Positions 459-11,000 are shown, counted from the stretch's first letter. The stretch: 11,000 nt of DNA from Takakia lepidozioides (GCA_030704615.1 JAKLZA010000133.1:1-11000); one strand, 5' to 3'. A program made the numbers and translations. The notes: generated by a model not told the origin, from the letters alone.

Positions 459-1615
459 GGGCTGTGACAGGCTGTGGCAAGCTGTGACAGGCTGTGATGG
501 GCTGTGATGGGCTGTGACAGGCTGTGCCCTGTGCCCTGTGGGGCTGTGACGGGCTGTGTCAGGCTGTGACAGGCTGTGCCCAGTGGCCTTTGGGGCTGTG
601 ACGGGCTGTGACAGGCCGTGCCTGAGGCCTTTGGGGCTGTGACGGGCTGTGACAGGCCGTGCCTGAGGCCTTTGGGGCTGTGACGGGCTGTGACGGGCTG
701 TGACAGGCTGTGCCCTATGCCCTGTGGGGCTGTGACGGGCTGTGTCAGGCTGTGGCGAGCTGTGACCGGCTGTGACGGGCTGTGGCAAGCTGTGACCGGC
801 TGTGATGGGCTGTGATGGCTGTGACAGGGTGTGCCCTGTGCCCTGTGGGGCTGTGACGGGCTGTGTCAGGCTGTGACAGGCTGTGCCCAGTGGCCTTTGG
901 GGCTGTGACGGGCTGTGGGGCTGTGACAGGCTGTGCCCTGAGGCCTATGGGGCTGTGACGGGCTGTGACAGGCTGTGGCGAGCTGTGACAGGCTGTGCCC
1001 ATGGCCTTTGGGGCTGTGACGGGCTGTGAGGGGCTGTGACAGGCCGTGCCTGAGGCCTTTGAGGCTGTGACGGGCTGTGAGGGGCTGTGACAGGCCGTGC
1101 CCATGGCCTTTGGGGCTGTGACGGGCTGTGAGGGGCTGTGACAGGCCGTGCCTGAGGCCTTTGAGGCTGTGAGGGGCTGTGAGGGGCTGTGACAGGCCGT
1201 GCCCTAGGCCTTTGAGGCTGTGACGGTGTGATGGGCTGTGGCAAGCTGTGACAGGCTGTGTGGGCTGTGATGGGCTGTGACAGGCTGTGCCTGTGCCTGT
1301 GAGGCTGTGAGGGGCTGTGACAGGCCGTGCCCATGGCCTTTGGGGCTGTGAGGGCTGTGAGGGGCTGTGACAGGCCGTGCCCATGGCCTTTGGGGCTGTG
1401 AGGGCTGTGAGGGGCTGTGACAGGCCGTGCCTGAGGCCTTTGGGGCTGTGACGGGCTGTGAGGGGCTGTGACAGGCCGTGCCCATGGCCTTTGGGGCTGT
1501 GACGGGCTGTGAGGGGCTGTGACAGGCCGTGCCTGAGGCCTTTGAGGCTGTGACAGGCTGTGAGGGGCTGCGACAGGCTGTGCCCAGTGGCCTGTGGGAC
1601 TGTGACGGCTGTGAC
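459..1615 (+). repeat. Minisatellite of 10-bp units (consensus GGGCTGTGAC) organised into ~51-bp higher-order repeats; degenerate tail to ~1690
   Basis: Visible units GGGCTGTGAC/AGGCTGTGAC/GGGCTGTGAT/GGGCTGTGAG, punctuated by AGGCCGTGCC(TGA|CAT)GGCCTTTG. 51-bp units at 1011-1061, 1062-1112 and 1113-1163. A ~95-bp block is duplicated at ~515-610 and ~823-917. Confidence 0.97.
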
Positions 1616-2352
1616 CAGTGAGCTGTGTGGGCCTGTGCTGGTCTGTGGTGGCCCGTGTTGACCTGTGGACGGCCTGTGCTGACTCGTGGAGGCACTGGTG
1701 GACTGCCTAAGGACTGGCATGTGGTCTGGAAGGCCGAATTTTGAAGCTCGTGGAGGGCGGTTTGAGGAGTATCTTCATGATATTCCCATGGTCATGCAAG
1801 TGAGGATAGAGAGGAGAGGCAGAGTGTTGGGATGAGAGCATGCTGGGGTTAGGCATTGCTTTAGCTTCTCTTCCTCGTAGTTTCCACCCTCTCATTAGGC
1901 CAAGACCTTTCCGTAGGTGGAGGCAAGAGTCAGTCCGGGTTTGGGCTGGGGTGTCCTTGCAGGAGCAACACCGTGGAGTTGTTTTTGGTGTGGGGGAGTT
2001 GTCGTTCTGATTTCTTGTGTTTGGATCCCCTCCATACCTGCATGCTTGACTGTGCGCCATGCTAGTTTTGTGTGGGCGCTTGTTTTTATAGGTGATTGGT
2101 CCGGATTTGATCACCGGCCAGTCCTAGAGCATGCTGTCGATGGTGAGGCTGGGGTGATGACCAGCCAGACCATCATTGTTTCTCCTGTGGTGAGGTTGGA
2201 GGTGATGACCAGCCAACCATAGGAGTGCTTGCGGTGGATGCAGGTACAGGTGTAGGCTATGTTAGGAACTTAGTATTCCAAACCATAAGCCGCAACAGGT
2301 TCTCTACCCGGTTACCTTGTGGAGAGGGGGTTAGGGACATGTTCATGACCGG

Positions 2353-3792
2353 TTGAGTGTCAACACGGAGGTGCCACTAGTTGCTGGGGACAGTGCCGGT
2401 TCGAGCACTAGCGATACTAGTGGGTACACGAGACGAGGTGTGCGGTTTAGGCCACCTTCACCTCCTGTGTCTTCCACGGAAGGTTCTGATTCGGATTGTG
2501 AATCAGGAGGACTCATACCGGCGGTGCAAGTTGTTTCTTTGCCATTGTTGTGGGACACAATGGAGGAGATGTATGGAGCTACCAAGGGGCCACGAAGGTA
2601 CTCTGGGGCGGTGGGCACCATCGAGTTGGATGATTTTATCCAAGAGTTTGATAGTTGGTGTGATTTGCAGCAAATGCGCAATCCACAACTATTTACGCCT
2701 TTCATGGCATGGAAAGGGCTGTTTCAGCACCTTGAGGGGCCGCCTATGGATGATTACCATGAGTTCAGGCGGGGGCATGAGGTTGAGATCGAGGAGTGGA
2801 GGATGTACTGGTCACCCGACTATGTCTCCATCACTAGGGGCACTAGAGCCACGAGGGCAGTGGCTACACCTGCCGCTGCACCGGCAGCTTCAGCAAGCAG
2901 CAGTGGGACTGGTGGTACAGTAGCTACGACGTCCACCCAAGCCACTACCGCACCAGCACTAGCACCCGTGCCTGCCTTCAACCCTGTTGTGGAGTTCTTC
3001 GAAGAGTTGAGAGGGAACTACCAAGGGGTGAGGACAGAGAAGTTGCGGAGCTTGCAAGAGTTCCAACGGAAGCCGACCGAGAGCTTGAGGGAGGCTTTCA
3101 CTCGCATGAGGCGCTTGATAAATGTAACCCAAGGGGTTACGGAAGCTCAGGCAGTCCAATTCTGGTATGGGATATTGGACAAGGAGCTGAGGAGAAGGGT
3201 GCGGGATGCAACTCTCCTACAAGCGGCCCAACCCACCTTAGCAAATGTGTTTTTGCTGGCAGAGCGGATAGAGCTCAACATGGTGGAGGAACGAGTGGTC
3301 ATGGTGGGATTTGCTAAGGAGACACCACGGGGTAGTGGTGCTCCTAGCCAACCACTACCTCAACGTGCTCAAGGCAACAAGGGGGCTCAGGTGAAGCTCA
3401 GGGAAGGGCAGAGAGGACCTCAGATGCAGGGGTCTCTCCCTTCATTTGCTGGCCAACAACGGGCGGATGTGGTGTGCTGGACATGTGGAGGACCCCATGT
3501 CAAGAAGGATTGTCCAGAGGGAGGCAAAGGGCCGGCACATGCACAGCCTGCACAGTTACAGTGTGGGCATTGTGGCAAACACGGGCATGGAGAGGCCCAG
3601 TGTTATGGTTTGCATCCTGAGTTGCGCCCAGGCCAGTTCCAAGGGAACAATGGTGGCCGGGGGCGAGGTGGAGCAGCCCAGAGGGACGAGGTGGCCAGCC
3701 ACGAGGTGCAGGCCAAGGGCAAGCTCAACGTGGCCAAGGACGCGGAGGTCAGGGTGTTGACCAAGGCATGGCCAACCGGCTTCAGCAGCTAG
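2353..3792 (+). CDS. gag: Retrotransposon Gag (capsid-like region plus two CCHC zinc knuckles); true frame probably starts at ATG 2345 and shifts at ~3685
   Basis: MHR-like 'FQRKPTESLREAFTRMRRL'; knuckles CWTCGGPHVKKDC (3475-3513) and CGHCGKHGHGEAQC (3562-3603). The ORF call starts at TTG; ATG-ACC-GG-TTG at 2345 would be in frame if one G is restored. Confidence 0.88.
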   Translation: MSVNTEVPLVAGDSAGSSTSDTSGYTRRGVRFRPPSPPVSSTEGSDSDCESGGLIPAVQVVSLPLLWDTMEEMYGATKGPRRYSGAVGTIELDDFIQEFDSWCDLQQMRNPQLFTPFMAWKGLFQHLEGPPMDDYHEFRRGHEVEIEEWRMYWSPDYVSITRGTRATRAVATPAAAPAASASSSGTGGTVATTSTQATTAPALAPVPAFNPVVEFFEELRGNYQGVRTEKLRSLQEFQRKPTESLREAFTRMRRLINVTQGVTEAQAVQFWYGILDKELRRRVRDATLLQAAQPTLANVFLLAERIELNMVEERVVMVGFAKETPRGSGAPSQPLPQRAQGNKGAQVKLREGQRGPQMQGSLPSFAGQQRADVVCWTCGGPHVKKDCPEGGKGPAHAQPAQLQCGHCGKHGHGEAQCYGLHPELRPGQFQGNNGGRGRGGAAQRDEVASHEVQAKGKLNVAKDAEVRVLTKAWPTGFSS

Positions 3793-4265
3793 AGCAGAGG
3801 CTCGCTGCCATGGCTACAGCTCAGGTGGTACCGGCTCTAAGGCCGGATGGTCCACCTCCTGCTCCTGAGGGAGGAGATATGGGAGGCATGGGATTCATGT
3901 GTGGAGCAGCACTACCACTAGTGCAGGTGGAGTCTGCTGCAGCCGTGACTCGAGGAGCAGCACGAGTTCCTGAGCCACGAGGTGCAGAGGTGGAGTTGGA
4001 TCCACAGCGTGGGGAGGCAAGCCGTCAGGCTAGGCTTCCTCAGTCATTCACATTGGCGGAGACAGTGTCGACGCCATCCATGGCACCTAGTTCTCGCCCG
4101 ACTGTTACCGAGGCGGAGGTTACTATGCCATTGGGGAGAGCTACACGGGTAGCACCACTACCTAGTGTTGCCAAGGCTACGGCAGCTAGTGTGCTGCTAG
4201 GAGCGGCCACATCTGTGTGCCAGGCTCCATTGTTCTCGGCTACCATGATTGCGACGCGGGGGTAA
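3684..4265 (+). CDS. gag: Frameshifted continuation of Gag: RGG-rich nucleocapsid tail, short coiled-coil-like segment and Gag-PR spacer
   Basis: The -1 frame from 3684 reads GRGGQPRGAGQGQAQRGQGRGGQGVDQGMANRLQQLEQRLAAM..., continuing the GGRGRGG tract of the upstream ORF. It joins the next ORF at the G-run 4258-4262. Confidence 0.72.
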   Translation, partial: GRGGQPRGAGQGQAQRGQGRGGQGVDQGMANRLQQLEQRLAAMATAQVVPALRPDGPPPAPEGGDMGGMGFMCGAALPLVQVESAAAVTRGAARVPEPRGAEVELDPQRGEASRQARLPQSFTLAETVSTPSMAPSSRPTVTEAEVTMPLGRATRVAPLPSVAKATAASVLLGAATSVCQAPLFSATMIATRG

Positions 4266-6523
4266 GACCAGCTGAGGTGTTCAGGCTGGCAGCTACACTC
4301 TGTGAGAGTGGGGAGGTTACTTCATCTTCTGCGGAGATAGTGGGAGGTGTAGTGCCGGAGGGATCCTCGGATTTGAGGGTCAAGACTGCCACGGCGGCGC
4401 CATGGCAAGCTGCAGCTGCCAGGTTGATGGAGCTGCCAGCTAGGCCAGCCATTGAGCGCGCCATGGTGACACCTGGAGTTGTCATGTTAGACAACCAGGA
4501 TGGCATTTTCTGTTTGAGTGGACCGGCAGGCAAGAGGTACCGGCCACTGCGAGTCTTGTTGGACTCGGGAGCTCAGCCATTGATGCTGGGCAGAGCTGCT
4601 ATTGCAGGCTTGGGCCTCACGGAGGCGGATATGGAGCCTTGTCCTTTCCAGATACAGACGTCTCTGGGAGGATCGGAGCAGGCTCGGGGCATGACACGGC
4701 ATGAGTTGGCTATCAGACTACGGCCGGATCACCCTACAGATGGCTCAGTGATGCGAGCCAAGGCCATTGTGACAGACGCAGTCTCATACGATGTCCTGGT
4801 TGGTGGGGCAGTGTTGTACCCCATGGGCTTCACCCTGGATTTTTGGGAGGAGTCAGCTTCCTATAGGCCTGCATGGCAGTCAGGGGAGGGCCGGCGTGTG
4901 CAGCTCCCTGTGACGTTCATAGGAGGAGTTGCGGTTGCCCAGCGAGGCAAGATGCCGACACTAGCAGCATTCACAGCGGCAGTGAGTTGGCCTAGAGAGT
5001 TGCTTGAGGGCAATGCTCATTCAGAGGATGTACCACCTCCGGGAGAGCAGGATGACATGTATGGTATGGCGGAGTTGCCTACCATGGTTGCTCAGACTCC
5101 ATTGTGGGGCACGAGCAAGGATTTGCAGCGGGATGCTGATCGACGGGTGCAACAAGCCTGGGTGGAGGCTTTTGTACCGTCAGGAGAGGAGGAGAGTGTG
5201 GGGATTGCACCAGGACCACCTCAATTGTCTCCATTGGACACCACACCTATTGTGTGGCAGTATCCGGATGAAGGCATTTGTCTTCTGGACTTGTTTGGCG
5301 GGATCAGCACCGGATTGGCTGCTGTGTTACAGGCAGGTGTACGAGTTCGGCGTTACCTGTATGTGGAGAGGGATGAGACTGCACGACGCGTTTCACTTCG
5401 CCATGTTGCTCAGTTGGTGCAGCGGTACCCTGAGTTGTTGTCGGTGTCTGCAATTCGTGGATATCAGCAGGCCTTGCCAGCAGACATTTCGTTGCTGGGG
5501 GCGCAGGATTTGGAGCGGGTTGGCTCCATTGATCTGGTAGTGGCAGGTTGGCCCTGCCAAGGGCATTCATCAGCCGGGCATGGCAATGGATTGCGAGACT
5601 CGAGGTCGGGTCTGTTTTGGGAGATGGTGCGGGTTTTGCGCCACTTGCAGCTTCATCAAGCTGTATCTCCAGCATACATCTTGGAGAATGTGCCACTGAT
5701 GGGCGATTCTCGGGCCAGGGTGATGGCCAGTGTGCATCAAGTCCGGTCGTGGCTTGGGTCAGCAGTGTTGCTAGATGCAGCTACAGTGGGGTCACGGGCT
5801 CATCGTCCACGGCTATGGTGGACTAACTTGATGCCACCCGCACTGCTCAAGCGTGCATTTGATGGGGTGCAGCGGCCAGCACATCTCACAGTGGATAACA
5901 TTCTGGACACAGGGAGGCAGTCTCAACGTGTGAGACACGATGACCGTTCGCCTTTGGCAGTGGTCAACAAGGTGGGTCAACCACGAGCAGCATTACCTAC
6001 ACTGCTCAGCTTCCCAGGATCGCATGCTTTCCGGGATAGTGGACCTGGCCTCCTGTGGGATGCTCAGTTGCAGCAGTTAGTGGAGCCTAATGCTGACGAG
6101 CGTGAGCGGGCAATGGGTTTTACCACTGGTACCACGGCGGTGTCGTCTCTTTCTGAGGCATCACGTCGTCAAGTGTTGGGGCAAGCAATGGATCTCAATT
6201 GCTTGACCTGGATTATCAGCTTGGCTCTAGCTGAGCAACGCAGAGTGCGGAATACACTTCCCTCAATGGTCTCTCTGCCTACCGAGACGGTACAGGCAGT
6301 GAGTGGGGGCGAGCATGTGAGGACCACGGGGTGCATGCATCCATGGCACACGTGGGAGGTGCTCGAGGTTCAGAGGGAGTTGGCAGCCAAGGCGGCTGTG
6401 ATGGATGAGGTTGGGGATTCTTCTCGAGTTGAGGAGGTCCTCAAGGATGAGATGATGGGGCAGGATGAGGCCTTGTCATTGACTGAGCAGGTAGGGAGTA
6501 CTGCTCAAGAGGTTGCAGCATAG
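4217..6523 (+). CDS. pol: Polyprotein segment: retropepsin aspartic protease fused to a DNMT3-like C5-cytosine methyltransferase
   Basis: Protease motifs VLLDSGA (Asp codon 4562) and YDVLVG. The DNMT motifs lie in the same uninterrupted frame. Confidence 0.92.
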   Translation: MPGSIVLGYHDCDAGVRPAEVFRLAATLCESGEVTSSSAEIVGGVVPEGSSDLRVKTATAAPWQAAAARLMELPARPAIERAMVTPGVVMLDNQDGIFCLSGPAGKRYRPLRVLLDSGAQPLMLGRAAIAGLGLTEADMEPCPFQIQTSLGGSEQARGMTRHELAIRLRPDHPTDGSVMRAKAIVTDAVSYDVLVGGAVLYPMGFTLDFWEESASYRPAWQSGEGRRVQLPVTFIGGVAVAQRGKMPTLAAFTAAVSWPRELLEGNAHSEDVPPPGEQDDMYGMAELPTMVAQTPLWGTSKDLQRDADRRVQQAWVEAFVPSGEEESVGIAPGPPQLSPLDTTPIVWQYPDEGICLLDLFGGISTGLAAVLQAGVRVRRYLYVERDETARRVSLRHVAQLVQRYPELLSVSAIRGYQQALPADISLLGAQDLERVGSIDLVVAGWPCQGHSSAGHGNGLRDSRSGLFWEMVRVLRHLQLHQAVSPAYILENVPLMGDSRARVMASVHQVRSWLGSAVLLDAATVGSRAHRPRLWWTNLMPPALLKRAFDGVQRPAHLTVDNILDTGRQSQRVRHDDRSPLAVVNKVGQPRAALPTLLSFPGSHAFRDSGPGLLWDAQLQQLVEPNADERERAMGFTTGTTAVSSLSEASRRQVLGQAMDLNCLTWIISLALAEQRRVRNTLPSMVSLPTETVQAVSGGEHVRTTGCMHPWHTWEVLEVQRELAAKAAVMDEVGDSSRVEEVLKDEMMGQDEALSLTEQVGSTAQEVAA
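4520..4910 (+). other. Aspartic protease (retropepsin) domain; boundaries approximate
   Basis: RVLLDSGAQPLMLG catalytic motif, flap-like QTSLGG, and C-terminal DVLVGGAVL. Confidence 0.85.
5276..6217 (+). other. C5-cytosine DNA methyltransferase catalytic domain, DNMT3-like, non-permuted
   Basis: Motif I LDLFGGISTG (5285); II YLYVERD; III PADI; IV DLVVAGWPCQGHS (catalytic Cys 5555-5557); VI YILENV (5684); VIII AHRPRLWWTNL (~5801); IX ADERERAMGF; X RRQVLGQAMD. Confidence 0.95.
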
Positions 6524-7414
6524 CAACCACGGGACGCGTCCTCTACCTCTAAGCCCACTGGACTTAAGGTTGTAGTTACGGAGGACAATTGGGAGCCTGA
6601 CATTGGACCCATTGTCACCGGAGGAGAGAGACGACGTATACGGCGGTTCCTGAGGGCTTACAGGAATTGCTTTGCCTTCAGTTTGAAGGACTTGGGAGCA
6701 CTGAAGGGTCAAGAGATCCGTATTGAGTTGGCCACTGACACGCCAATCTTTCGGAGACCCTATAGATACAGTGACATGGAGAGGTCTTTGATTCAGATGA
6801 GGACTCAAGATCTCTGGGAGGCAGGTTTGGTGGAGCTCTCTGGTGGAGAGTATGCTTCAGCCACAGTGATGCCAGCCAAGAAGGATGTCTATGGCAATTG
6901 GACGGAGAGACGTATGTGCGGTGATTACCGGCCTGTAAATCGTCAGACCAAGTCCGATAAGTATGCCATGCCAACACCAGAGGAGATCTTTGATGCCATC
7001 GGGCATGCTAAGGCCTTTAGCACTTTGGATTTACGATCCGGATATCACCAGTTGCCAATCAAGGAGGCGGACAAGCAGAAGACGGCATTCTGGGGGATCA
7101 ATGAGCACGGCAAGGATTGCCTATATCAGTGGCGGTTCTTACCATTTGGGCTTAAGAATGCTCCTGCAGAGTTTCAGAGAGTCATGGATAGGATTCTAGC
7201 AGGGGTGGACTTTGCTCGGTGCTACATAGATGACATCATCATCTTTAGTGTTACGATGGAGGAGCATGAGAGACACCTTCAGGTGGTATTGGAGCGCTTG
7301 AGAGCGCACGGATTGAAGTTGCATCCGGGGAAGTGCAAGTTTTTCCACAACCAGATTGAGTATCTGGGTCACATGATATATCCTGGAGGATTGGGGTACA
7401 GCAGACTAAGGTAG
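6524..7414 (+). CDS. pol: Reverse transcriptase (Ty3/Gypsy type); same frame as PR-DNMT after the single TAG at 6521-6523; frameshift at ~7393-7396
   Basis: The frame is open from 6524. Motifs RMCGDYRPVN, STLDLRSGYHQL, LPFGLKNAPAEFQ, YIDD (7223-7234) and KCKF...IEYLGH. Confidence 0.95.
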   Translation, partial: QPRDASSTSKPTGLKVVVTEDNWEPDIGPIVTGGERRRIRRFLRAYRNCFAFSLKDLGALKGQEIRIELATDTPIFRRPYRYSDMERSLIQMRTQDLWEAGLVELSGGEYASATVMPAKKDVYGNWTERRMCGDYRPVNRQTKSDKYAMPTPEEIFDAIGHAKAFSTLDLRSGYHQLPIKEADKQKTAFWGINEHGKDCLYQWRFLPFGLKNAPAEFQRVMDRILAGVDFARCYIDDIIIFSVTMEEHERHLQVVLERLRAHGLKLHPGKCKFFHNQIEYLGHMIYPGGLGYSRLR

Positions 7415-8158
7415 AGGCCATTGCACAAATTCCACGCCCCACGGATGTGAGCCGAGTTCGAGCTTTCATGGGGTTGGCAAACTATTATAGACGGTTTGTC
7501 AAGGGATTTAGTACCATTGCAAAGGCTCTAACCAAGCTGACCAAGGTGGACCAGAGTGGCAGTGGGAAGATGAGCAGGAACGAGCTTTTCAAGAGCTCAA
7601 GGCGAGGTTGACCTCGGCGCCTATCTTGAGACGACCTATCAGGGGGCGTCCCTTTCAGCTGCATACGGATTGGAGCATGCTGGGGCTTGGAGCGGTGCTC
7701 ACACAGGTGGATGATGAGGGAAGAGAGTTCGTAGTGGCTTACGCTAGCCGCTCGAACAACGCTGCAGAGGCTAAGTACAGCTCATATGAGGGAGAGGAGA
7801 GTGCTTAGCTGCAGTGTGGGCCGTGGCACACTTCAGGTGCTATCTATACGGCAATCTTTTCACCCTTGTCACGGATCACCAGCCACTCAAGTGGTTGATG
7901 GAGTCAGACAAGCTTACGGGGAAGCTTGCACGGTGGGCACTTATACTCCAGGAGTATGACTTTCAGGTTGTGCATCGACCGGGTTTGGTCAATCGGGATG
8001 CGGATGGATTGAGTCGCAATCCATGCATGAGCCAGCAGGATGACACTGGAGCTCGGTGGCATGGTGAGACGGACGAGGAGATGGTGCCGGGATGGCACGC
8101 ATCTGCATTTTTGTGTATCTTGGCATCGGGAGGTCAGATGGACCTACAACAGGGATGA
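7396..8158 (+). CDS. pol: RT thumb/connection and Ty3/Gypsy RNase H; frameshifts at ~7554 and 7791-7800
   Basis: VRAFMGLANYYRRFVKGFSTIAKAL; FQLHTDWSMLGLGAVLTQ; VVAYASR; SYEGE/CLAAVWAV; LVTDHQPL; RWALILQEYDF; HRPGLVNRDADGLSR. Confidence 0.92.
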
Positions 8159-8203
8159 CTGTAGACGGAGTGTCTGAGGACCCTGAGGCTAGTGATGAGC
8201 TAG

Positions 8204-9660
8204 GTGGTGCAGAGAGATATACATGAGGATTCGGCTGTGTTGGACTACCTCCGCACGGGAGACACGGCAGCCATTGTGACTGCCAGGGAGAGGGATCGGA
8301 TCCTGCAACGAGCCAAGAGGTTCAAGTGGGAGGGGATACACCTACTTCGAGTGTGGGAGGATGGTCGGGTGAGGATTGTGCCTCACCCCACACAGCGTGC
8401 ACGGTTAGTGCGGCATGCCCATGAGGAGTTGGGGCATTTTGGAGTGCGACGCACTCACAGTTTACTGCAGGGGCAGTATTGGTGGCGTGGTATGCATACA
8501 GAGGTGCAACAGTTTGTGGCTAGGTGCATGGTGTGTGACAGGGTGCGTGCTTCATTCAACGCCCCTACACCACAGTTGCATCCTTTACCTATCATGGGAT
8601 TGGGCTACAGGTGGAGTCTTGACTTCGCAGGACCGTTGCCACTGACTATGCGCCACCACAGATATGTGTTGGTGATGGTGGAGCACTTCTCCAAGTGGAT
8701 TGAGTTGGTTCCATTGCCTGACAAGGCTAGTGAGGGGGCTGCGTATGCATTCTTGGATCGTGTGCTTAGCCGATTTGGTGCTCCAGCTGAGGTACTCACG
8801 GACCAAGGGAGAGAGTTCTTGGGGGAGTTTCAGGCTTTGTGTGATAAAGCCTTGATAGACCACCGCACCACTTCTCGGGATCATCCTGAGGCCGATGGCT
8901 TAGCAGAGAGAGTTGTTCAGACGGTGAAGAGGGGTTTGCGCAAGTATGGCTTGCAGAAGGGACACCTAGGAGATTGGGATCTTCAGGTTCCTTGGTTAGC
9001 CATGGGCTACAGGTTCAGCAAACAAGCATCACTTGCCTCCTTCTCACCATATTTCTTCTCTTTGGCCGAGAGCCGGATTTGCCTGCAGCCATTCGTAGGG
9101 ACACTGCTCAAGTCCTTAACCTTGACGATCCGGACGTGTGGGTACGTGCATGTGATCAGCGTGCAGAGTTGTTCAAGAAAGTCATGCCCATGGCTTTTGA
9201 GAACCTTGCCATTGCACAGCACCGTGATACGTTGAGGTATGCCACTATACGTGGTGGAGGATATCGTCCTGGGGTTCGGAGGTTTAGCCCTGGTGACTAT
9301 GTTTATTTGCAGCAGACTGCTCCTACGACTCTGGATGTTACTGCAGGGCGTGTTATTCTGAGGGTTCGAGAGGTGTTGCCCTCAGGGGTCCTGATCTTAG
9401 AGGGTCGGGATGGCATGACTTGGAAAGACCATGTGCGTAATTGTGCGCCATGTCACCTTCCCAATGTCGATGGCAGAGTTGACCCAAACTTGGCAGTGGT
9501 ACCTGCAGGTTTGAGGTGCATGCTCTGTGGGTCTGCCAAAGGGGCAGCCACCATGCTGGTGTGTGATCGGTGCTCAAAGGGTTGGCATATGGGATGCTTG
9601 ACACCACCTCTTGAGAAGGTTCCTGACGGAGATTGGTTGTGTCCACACTGCTTGGGATAG
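8204..9660 (+). CDS. pol: Integrase (HHCC, DDE core, C-terminal domain) fused to a PHD finger; frameshift at ~9052-9055
   Basis: HEELGHFG...CMVC zinc-binding motif; SLDFAG, LTDQG and DGLAER catalytic D-D-E; SPYF/LLFGREP across the frameshift; FSPGDYVYL; stop TAG at 9658-9660. Confidence 0.93.
9517..9651 (+). other. PHD finger (C4HC3) at the integrase C-terminus
   Basis: CMLC-x11-CDRC-x4-H-x2-C-LTPPLEKVPDGDWL-CPHC; all eight ligands and the conserved W before the last Cys pair are present. Confidence 0.93.
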
Positions 9661-9909
9661 TGGCAGTGGACATGACTGGAGGCAGCTAACAAGACATGGG
9701 AGGCCAAGCTCATAGGAGTCAATACATGAGATCCCAAGCTCAAGTTCACAGGTTGCAAGACGGCGACTAACGATGGGGCAACTCTTGCACCCGGCCTCTT
9801 GATCTATCGAGTTTGAGTGTAGTAGGGATAGTGGTGGAGGACTTAGTGAGGCTATGGTCACTATCACATCTTGTGGCTACCTGGACTTAGAGGGACCTAA
9901 GCACCAGCT

Positions 9910-9916
9910 AGGGGGG
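9910..9916 (+). promoter_or_regulatory. Polypurine tract (plus-strand primer)
   Basis: AGGGGGG located 4 nt upstream of the TG that begins the LTR. Confidence 0.7.
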
Positions 9917-9920
9917 CGAT

Positions 9921-10108
9921 TGTGTGGACTAGTGACTGCCATAGTGGGCAGCATAGTGGCAGCCTAGTGACTGACTAGTTGTAGCCTAGTGGTTGGACTA
10001 GTGGCTGGACTAGTGGTAGACTAGTGGTATACTAGTGTGTGGTGTGCACATGTGTTGTGTGGTTTTGGACAGCGATGTAGTTGTGTAGCGATATGTATGC
10101 GCACGACA
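9921..10108 (+). repeat. LTR block A, copy 1 (188 bp)
   Basis: Identical to 10441-10627 except for one G (TGTGTGGACT vs TGTGTGACT). Confidence 0.97.
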
Positions 10109-10440
10109 GCTGTCAAGTTATTTTACCACTAGTGTGAAACTAGCTAGGAAATAGCTAGCTAGCTTTTACATATTGACATTTGGGATTGGCCCAAGTGTCA
10201 ATCCAGGGGTCAAGGCAGATTTAGGCCCTGGAGTGGTTATCTTCACGGCAAGCGCGGGAGGCTCATCTTTCTCGAGTTGAGCCTCACCGCGCCTAGCTAT
10301 GGCGCCGTAGTGTGGATTCCCCATGGCGTGGGGTGCACTTGGCTTGACTTGTATTTGAGTGATGAGGTTATATATGCATGAGTTTATGCTTCAGCTTTGT
10401 GAGCTCGCATGAGCTTGTGCTTGTATTCTTTTATTATCAT

Positions 10441-10627
10441 TGTGTGACTAGTGACTGCCATAGTGGGCAGCATAGTGGCAGCCTAGTGACTGACTAGTTG
10501 TAGCCTAGTGGTTGGACTAGTGGCTGGACTAGTGGTAGACTAGTGGTATACTAGTGTGTGGTGTGCACATGTGTTGTGTGGTTTTGGACAGCGATGTAGT
10601 TGTGTAGCGATATGTATGCGCACGACA
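10441..10627 (+). repeat. LTR block A, copy 2 (187 bp)
   Basis: Direct repeat of 9921-10108. Confidence 0.97.
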
Positions 10628-10628
10628 T

Positions 10629-11000
10629 ACGGATGGCTCCCTCACCAACCATAAAGCAGGGTATGGCATTTACCACGCTGGCAACAGGCAGGGAGTTGCC
10701 TTCCGGCTCCCGGGCCCTGCCACCATTTTCAGAGCAGAACTTATGGCCATCCATGACGCTCTCTCCTTGCTTGGTGCCTTCCCCCCTCCACACTATATCT
10801 TTACTGACAGCCTCACCTCCCTATATCTGATCCGAAACCACGTCTCCCGCCCATCTTCCCACCATCATCACCCTGATCGTAACCTTATTGTTGCCAGTGT
10901 TCACAAAGCCACCTCTATCACCCACCCAGTCCACTTCCTCAAAGTCCGCTCACACACTGGTATCCATGGGAATGATGAAGCCGATCTCCTCGTTCAACTC
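10629..11000 (+). pseudogene. RNase HI domain of a probable non-LTR (LINE-like) retroelement, interrupted by the Gypsy insertion; runs off the window
   Basis: My translation of an open frame absent from the ORF track: TDGSLTNHKAGYGIY...TIFRAELMAI...YIFTDSLTSL...HFLKVRSHTGIHGNDEADLL, which contains the D-E-D-D catalytic set and the His loop. The LINE assignment (rather than a host RNase H1) is inference. Confidence 0.85.

Follow-up and report, generated by a model that had tools for sequence, protein, structure and literature searches.

Retrotransposons that carry a DNA methyltransferase of their own were described by De Mendoza et al. in 2018 (PMC5890265). They include KnitGypsy-Dnmt3 of Klebsormidium nitens, a Gypsy element with a Dnmt3, DIRS-like repeats and a Ka/Ks below 0.2, and SymbioDIRS-Dnmt3 of Symbiodinium, the enzyme of which methylates CG de novo in yeast (PMC5890265). 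Later papers cite the Klebsormidium elements as streptophyte elements, and 'streptophytes (Gypsy-DNMT3)' appears as a separate known case in a preprint on elements named EpiLTRs and DAM-LTRs (bioRxiv 10.64898/2026.05.21.726589). In this study, we analysed 11,000 nucleotides of DNA from Takakia lepidozioides (GCA_030704615.1 JAKLZA010000133.1:1-11000; the window), which contain most of one Gypsy retrotransposon with a cytosine-5 DNA methyltransferase (MTase). An original prediction, made from the sequence alone, had proposed a DNMT3-like enzyme here and named DNMT-carrying retrotransposons as its precedent; the 2018 paper shows that this precedent is real.

The element belongs to a known kind, a Gypsy element with a Dnmt3, in which the conserved recoding site and the structure of the ends are apparently new. 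It resembles KnitGypsy-Dnmt3 in its Gypsy domains, in the non-permuted Dnmt3-like MTase within the polyprotein, in purifying selection (<0.2) and in the plan A-coding-B-A-B. It differs in its likely land-plant host, its very many copies and an MTase that ends the Gag-protease frame before a readthrough-type stop. The text of the 2018 paper, as far as consulted for this comparison by description, mentions no PHD finger, palindromic junction, 4-bp target duplication or liverwort, moss and chlorophyte relatives. SymbioDIRS-Dnmt3 is likewise a split-repeat retrotransposon with a Dnmt3-type MTase, but it has a tyrosine recombinase where the present element has a DDE integrase, and its authors regard the acquisition as independent (PMC5890265). 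EpiLTRs and DAM-LTRs are also long terminal repeat (LTR) elements that combine a DNA methyltransferase with a chromatin reader; as outlined in the preprint, they differ in that their DNMT is sister to DNMT4 and in having an adenine MTase and a chromodomain (bioRxiv 10.64898/2026.05.21.726589). No description of land-plant or chlorophyte members, of the readthrough stop or of the palindromic junction was found in the literature, in which subscription journals were thinly covered and the 2018 supplementary figures may bear on the point. The main text of Neumann 2019 leaves PHD, methyltransferase and Marchantia unmentioned, and no REXdb clade was assigned.

The MTase element is real, selected and widespread. 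Its domains follow one another on the plus strand as Gag-protease-MTase-RT-RNase H-integrase-PHD (RT, reverse transcriptase; Table 1). The Pfam scan gave the Ty3/Gypsy order of protease, RT, RNase H and DDE integrase; among the ten frames scanned, no tyrosine recombinase family was found, an rve integrase being present instead. A single open frame of 777 amino acids (4190-6520) joins protease and MTase, with the protease motif LLDSGA (4556-4573) in the same frame as the enzyme. Within this frame lie all the motifs named in the original prediction, which had claimed a complete MTase in frame downstream of the protease, with no stop or shift. The predicted place between protease and RT was also correct, but a continuous frame into RT was not found, as a TAG at 6521-6523 intervenes. 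The motifs are I (LFGGISTG, 5291), II (YVERD, 5360), IV (AGWPCQ, 5543), GLFWE (5609), VI (ILENV, 5678), VIII (LDAA..AHRPRLWWTNL, 5771-5830), IX (ERAMGF, 6104) and X (RRQVLGQAMD, 6164); their order is non-permuted, and the catalytic Cys, the Glu and the RxR are all present. The search with PF00145 proposed earlier as a check gave 48.2 bits (E 1.3e-12), above the cutoff of 22. The sequence search of PDB returned 45 matches, of which the top 27 were DNMT3A/B/C (best E 9e-12); DRM-type entries scored 4e-6 or worse and HhaI 4e-4. In the Foldseek search with the AlphaFold2 model of the domain (pLDDT 92.4), every match listed was a DNMT3A/B/C structure (TM about 0.7), and the fold matched DNA-bound DNMT3A. 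Judged by sequence and modelled fold against PDB, the MTase is DNMT3-like and closest to DNMT3, as predicted, rather than a permuted DRM. Phage families match the domain too (phrog_116, E 1e-22). Across 233 homologous domains, chosen by similarity and thus favouring conservation, the catalytic Cys was kept in 229, the motif VI Glu in 231 and the two motif VIII Arg in 230 and 231.

Two sequencing runs of a single sample gave about 98,000 and 106,000 contig pieces on positions 1750-10445, at identities from 99% to under 90%, summed contig depth being no copy number. Near-identical sequence was met in sequencing runs of four organisms, with small shares in two of them. The depth of the MTase in the contig pieces was about that of the neighbouring domains; sister copies thus carry the domain, the absence of which had been named as a refutation. 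Protein matches (n=72) included 21 from Marchantia polymorpha, which are named gene models and reach 76% over the full MTase, 2 from Calypogeia fissa, 2 from Sphagnum and 1 from Closterium, a streptophyte-algal member; remoter matches came from Scenedesmus, Haematococcus, Hariotina and Monoraphidium. The named matches point to a bryophyte or some other early-branching land plant as the likely host. No match named as seed plant or Klebsormidium was returned by the protein searches, which is weak evidence as these were word-limited. The profile search gave 685 clusters (50% identity) with E<=1e-30, the best 150 of which were examined and some of which may be non-transposon proteins. The class had been called rare; it is far wider than that in green plants.

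Among the relatives, P0025 (52% identical) is labelled as a bacterial metagenome-assembled genome and is probably plant DNA in a bacterial bin. Two distant homologues are paired with different domains: P0358 has PF05869, and P0359 has RNase H families but no RT. Internally deleted copies also occur: L013 fuses the MTase to the integrase tail, and L027 fuses gag to the MTase.

The domain does not evolve neutrally. Its dN/dS between lineages was 0.11-0.19 (L019/L028, 0.11; L019/L020, 0.13; L037/41/44, 0.12-0.17), a constraint about equal to that of the protease and somewhat looser than that of RT; between the window and moss-type MTases, pN was 0.17-0.18 with synonymous sites saturated. On these sequence comparisons, the MTase is kept under purifying selection between lineages. 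We give next to no credence to a one-off capture of a host gene that is now decaying. Such a capture might be read from the broken copy in the window, from the dN/dS of 0.38-0.70 among moss-type genomic copies of one family and from the full-length MTase domains of the loci compared, 19 of 39 of which contain stops. However, RT and protease decay alike in these old copies, looser dN/dS and stops being as expected after insertion, and the low dN/dS between lineages, hundreds of relatives and broadly congruent trees refute it.

The trees held 44 of the 92 non-redundant rows with both domains and 16 MTase-only rows, a random 18 of the unnamed rows with the MTase after RT being retained; they were built by a quick method with SH-aLRT support only. 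The searches returned no host DNMT3 or DRM sequence, and the rows of the MTase tree are element and prokaryotic-type. The MTase and RT trees broadly agree, and in both the stop-bearing group and the MTase-after-RT group are each separated from the remaining rows by one branch. The stop group had a support of 100 in the RT tree and 72 in the MTase tree, rising to 97 in the latter once one further protein that ends after the MTase joins the group. These splits fit one old acquisition and one positional move of the MTase between a place before RT and a place between RNase H and integrase, the direction of which they do not show.

The stop that follows the MTase is itself conserved. TAG or TAA followed by CARYY, 19-26 codons ahead of RT, was found in 27 of the 35 loci in which the MTase end and the RT start are both present; a single moss-type family with CAACC(C/T) accounts for 22 of these, and 5 have the full CARYYA. 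Of the remaining loci, four lack a stop at this place and four are decayed copies that have different stops. Among 1926 stop triplets taken as background, 13 were followed by CARYY and 6 by CARYYA. The stop with CARYY occurs in at least five lineages whose linkers are unrelated, further stop cases are L031, L058 and L052, and many database proteins terminate 50-125 residues past the MTase. The substitutions listed for four runs, 40 in number, all lie outside positions 6519-6572 (29 further rows stand outside this count), and the contig of a second organism crosses the stop with its two differences elsewhere. Decay as the origin of the TAG at 6521 was rejected on its conservation across loci and its clean context in the element's own copies.

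CARYYA is the readthrough signal of tobacco mosaic virus (TMV) and many plant viruses (PMC4132726). In a plant reporter, 32% readthrough was measured with the TMV context (PMC2754532), and readthrough was lost when the first C was changed (PMC4132726, PMC2754532). The element has the same 3' context as the TMV-type UAG-CARYYA; its moss-type copies depart at the sixth base. The conservation of the stop indicates that the MTase ends the Gag-protease frame, and RT, RNase H, integrase and PHD are likely made by readthrough. The predicted RNA stem 3' of the stop was more stable than shuffled sequences in four lineages (z -2.0 to -3.0). Some remote relatives also stop just past the MTase, with TGA CGG (L061:875-883), TAG G (L059:1805-1813) and TGA CAATTA (L052:1291-1299). 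These contexts resemble other readthrough types, and the stop may have had more than one origin.

The second unusual feature lies at the ends. Only the right end of the element lies in the window; the left repeat, A1, is absent from it, and we infer that A1 lies further left. The full plan A1-coding-B1-A2-B2 is seen in the relatives L030 and L039, and B-A-B 3' ends in L015 and L057. The element starts with TGTCA and ends with GCACGACA. Target duplications of 4 bp flank all 4 two-ended copies (AAGG, CATA and TACA exact; CTTA/CCTA with one mismatch), and TG..CA ends with a short target duplication were met in L030, L039, L017 and L024. These ends and duplications argue for integration by the integrase. 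At the internal joint of B and A, the right and left ends are joined by two bases in the palindrome GACAGCTGTC. Allowing one mismatch, 12 of 28 loci have this palindrome, where a total of about 1.4 would be expected; it is kept as far out as algal-type elements, and also where RT is only about 34% identical. Two complete direct LTRs with a tRNA primer site and a purine tract beside the 3' LTR were not found, the repeats being split.

Two origins of this structure were rejected or disfavoured. If a plain 2-LTR circle were cut at one or other of its junctions, left ends of the form A-B-A would be expected; there were none among 10 distinct left ends. That the 3' repeat is a tandem duplication made by chance, or a small nested element, is contradicted by the joint of A and B, which recurs in divergent copies and relatives. 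Single-B right ends (L007, L013, L017, L024/L032, L025) were not used, as they are possible recombination products or assembly collapse. Cutting the palindrome after CA on each strand would leave two ends with 2-nt 5' overhangs, as processed retroviral ends have. Foamy virus integrase, a retroviral enzyme, can cleave palindromic LTR-LTR junctions (PMC1180852). The junctions described for foamy virus and HIV (PMC1180852, PMC1905944) share with the element a palindrome of two ends, which integrase cuts there, and would cut here, to give processed ends; there the palindrome forms when a normal LTR virus makes 2-LTR circles, whereas here it is a fixed internal part.

It is unlikely, in our view, that the stop is bypassed by splicing or reinitiation and that the ends come from ordinary template switching on linear cDNA, with no circle-type cleavage of a junction. 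Moss-type copies have an ATG two codons past the stop, where reinitiation is possible, the element does splice in its leader, and no cDNA intermediates were seen, all of which would suit such a route. However, there is no nearby ATG in the window or in L019/L028, no GT..AG skip over the stop was met among DNA contigs, though skips of the leader intron were, and the CAR-YY context recurs in unrelated linkers. Ordinary template switching also fits poorly with the ends, as A1 of L030 and L039 lacks a tRNA-primer-like TGG after it, and the purine tract lies ahead of B1 and so does not define the left end.

On balance, we favour the reading that the copy in the window, itself broken, belongs to an old Gypsy lineage of green plants, the DNMT3-like MTase of which closes the Gag-protease frame at a likely leaky stop, is produced at capsid level and likely methylates new element DNA. 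Most of the product would then be Gag-protease-MTase, and less would be the RT-integrase fusion, with readthrough of some percent to tens of percent. Many MTase copies would be packaged together with Gag, whether or not the protease frees them. Through de novo methylation, either of the cDNA inside the particle or of the site of insertion, the new copy would arrive already marked. The internal junction of B and A would template both termini on circular or end-extended cDNA, and a 2-nt staggered integrase cut after CA in GACA-GC-TGTC would yield processed TG..CA ends. The best PDB matches of the PHD finger are CHD4, the first PHD finger of KDM5B/A, PHF12, BAZ2, PHF21A and UHRF1. These fingers mostly read unmethylated H3K4, like the ADD domain of animal DNMT3. 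As a lead only, the PHD finger may bind unmethylated H3K4 and divert insertion from active promoters. A fuller version is possible but doubtful: a split-LTR Gypsy lineage across green plants that replicates in a PAT/DIRS-like manner, copying both ends from the internal junction, with a DDE integrase that cuts the palindrome and, in land plants, a leaky stop that loads active DNMT3 at capsid stoichiometry for pre-methylated insertions.

Several observations weigh against the favoured reading. The moss-type copies have CAACCC instead of CARYYA, together with the ATG mentioned above, and the 22 moss-type loci, being one family, are not independent. Compensatory change was seen in 0 of 34 and 4 of 28 stem pairs. 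In 16 of 28 loci, no palindrome was detected downstream; some of these contigs are short or stop at a single B. Several relatives with the MTase before RT have no stop and are single polyproteins (P0216-P0220, L063), which indicates that the stop arrangement is a derived state. The order RT-RNase H-MTase-integrase-PHD was found in 61 of 262 proteins, with the MTase between RNase H and integrase in chlorophyte-type relatives. Stopless relatives and the many MTases in that place indicate that capsid-level dosage is not required throughout the lineage. The Klebsormidium enzyme gave no methylation in yeast, a result its authors call inconclusive (PMC5890265). The observed/expected CpG ratio of the element, 0.45-0.65, is close to the 0.51 of the flanking foreign fragment; CpG depletion as a mark of self-methylation was therefore rejected.

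The last two observations would also suit a domain that is a DNA- or RNA-binding or structural module, or that methylates RNA, DNA methylation not being its job, and so would the family-specific MD of motif X (Asp in 225 of 233 domains). We consider this quite improbable, since Cys, Glu and both Arg are 98-99% conserved and the modelled fold matches DNMT3A bound to DNA. The position of the MTase in chlorophyte-type elements, where it adjoins integrase-PHD, bears on another explanation, in which the enzyme acts on host chromatin or on other copies, as self-limiting silencing or as methylation near the insertion site led by integrase-PHD, and not on particle cDNA. A PHD with a DNMT3 echoes the histone-reading host DNMT3. 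Host-benefit and insertion-site roles are listed by De Mendoza et al. (PMC5890265). Nevertheless, in the present clade the MTase is tied to Gag and the stop separates it from the integrase, and we regard action on host chromatin as rather unlikely.

Table 1. Features of the element and its flank in the window (A, B: repeats; coordinates in nucleotides from the first base)
Feature	Position	Strand	Basis or remark
Tandem array, 10-nt unit GGCTGTGACA, 51-nt higher order	460..1614	+	Strand-skewed; possibly in 5' leader
Likely intron in 5' leader, GT..AG, second acceptor 2222	1800..2243	+	Skips 1799->2244 and 1799->2223 in DNA contigs
gag, two CCHC-type zinc knuckles	2560..3792	+	Retrotrans_gag weak, E 0.002; frameshift near 3683
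Gag-protease linker, second frame	3621..4265	+	Frameshift near 4256
Aspartic protease	4481..4900	+	LLDSGA at 4556; Pfam weak, E 0.036
DNMT3-like C5 cytosine methyltransferase	5258..6250	+	Motifs I-X complete; catalytic Cys at 5555
Stop with readthrough-type context TAG CAACCA (CARYYA)	6521..6529	+	Conserved across loci
Reverse transcriptase	6524..7414	+	RVT_1 E 7e-34; YIDD at 7223; MTase frame; frameshift near 7392
Predicted RNA stem 3' of stop	6534..6637	+	Weak support
RNase H	7512..8158	+	Pfam; broken near 7553 and 7791
Integrase, HHCC zinc finger and rve core	8312..9480	+	Breaks near 8138-8212 and 9051
C-terminal PHD finger	9511..9660	+	PF00628 E 5e-11
Polypurine tract just ahead of B1	9908..9919	+	Region conserved with moss-type relatives
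Repeat B1, ends GCACGACA	9920..10108	+	Repeat comparison
Palindromic B/A junction GACA-GC-TGTC (right end, 2 nt, left end)	10105..10114	.	Repeat ends compared
Repeat A2, starts TGTCA	10111..10439	+	A end borders a different constant sequence in other copies
Repeat B2, right element end, ..GCACGACA	10440..10627	+	Equals B1 save one base at start
Flank: RNase H fragment of another element	10628..11000	+	PF00075 E 2e-13

About eight frameshifts break the copy in the window, none of them in the MTase; they lie in gag, RT/RNase H and integrase, and other copies differ at those places. The two frameshifts near 3683 and 4256, which sever gag from the protease-MTase frame here, have no counterpart in other copies, and the break-free protease-MTase stretch is a marginal signal (p about 0.05). 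The indels of the coding region (3683-9054) are mostly single-base losses relative to other copies, and the two B repeats (9920-10627) differ by one base; part of these indels may be assembly errors. Over its full length, the gag domain is 55-66% identical to that of moss-type relatives.

The tandem array possibly sits in a long 5' leader of the element, and the leader of L028 likewise holds a short tandem repeat. The leader segment 1800-2243 is likely, from the skips in DNA contigs, an intron with two acceptors. Intron-less genomic copies are a minority, under 1% of summed depth, and point to copies made from spliced RNA. At the other end, the right end of the Gypsy element interrupts the flanking RNase H fragment, which is of the YTDGS type, just ahead of its motif; by sequence, the element is inserted into another element.

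Programs that search for a pair of full LTRs are likely to misannotate elements of this kind. From the end-to-end palindrome, integration by a route unusual for the LTR class would be expected, and the conserved stop predicts both the dose and the place of the enzyme, with the capsid. Why retrotransposons carry a host silencing enzyme has been an open question since 2018, partly because the hosts are hard to work with. The lineage described here is present in Marchantia polymorpha, a genetic model, and the question is therefore testable.

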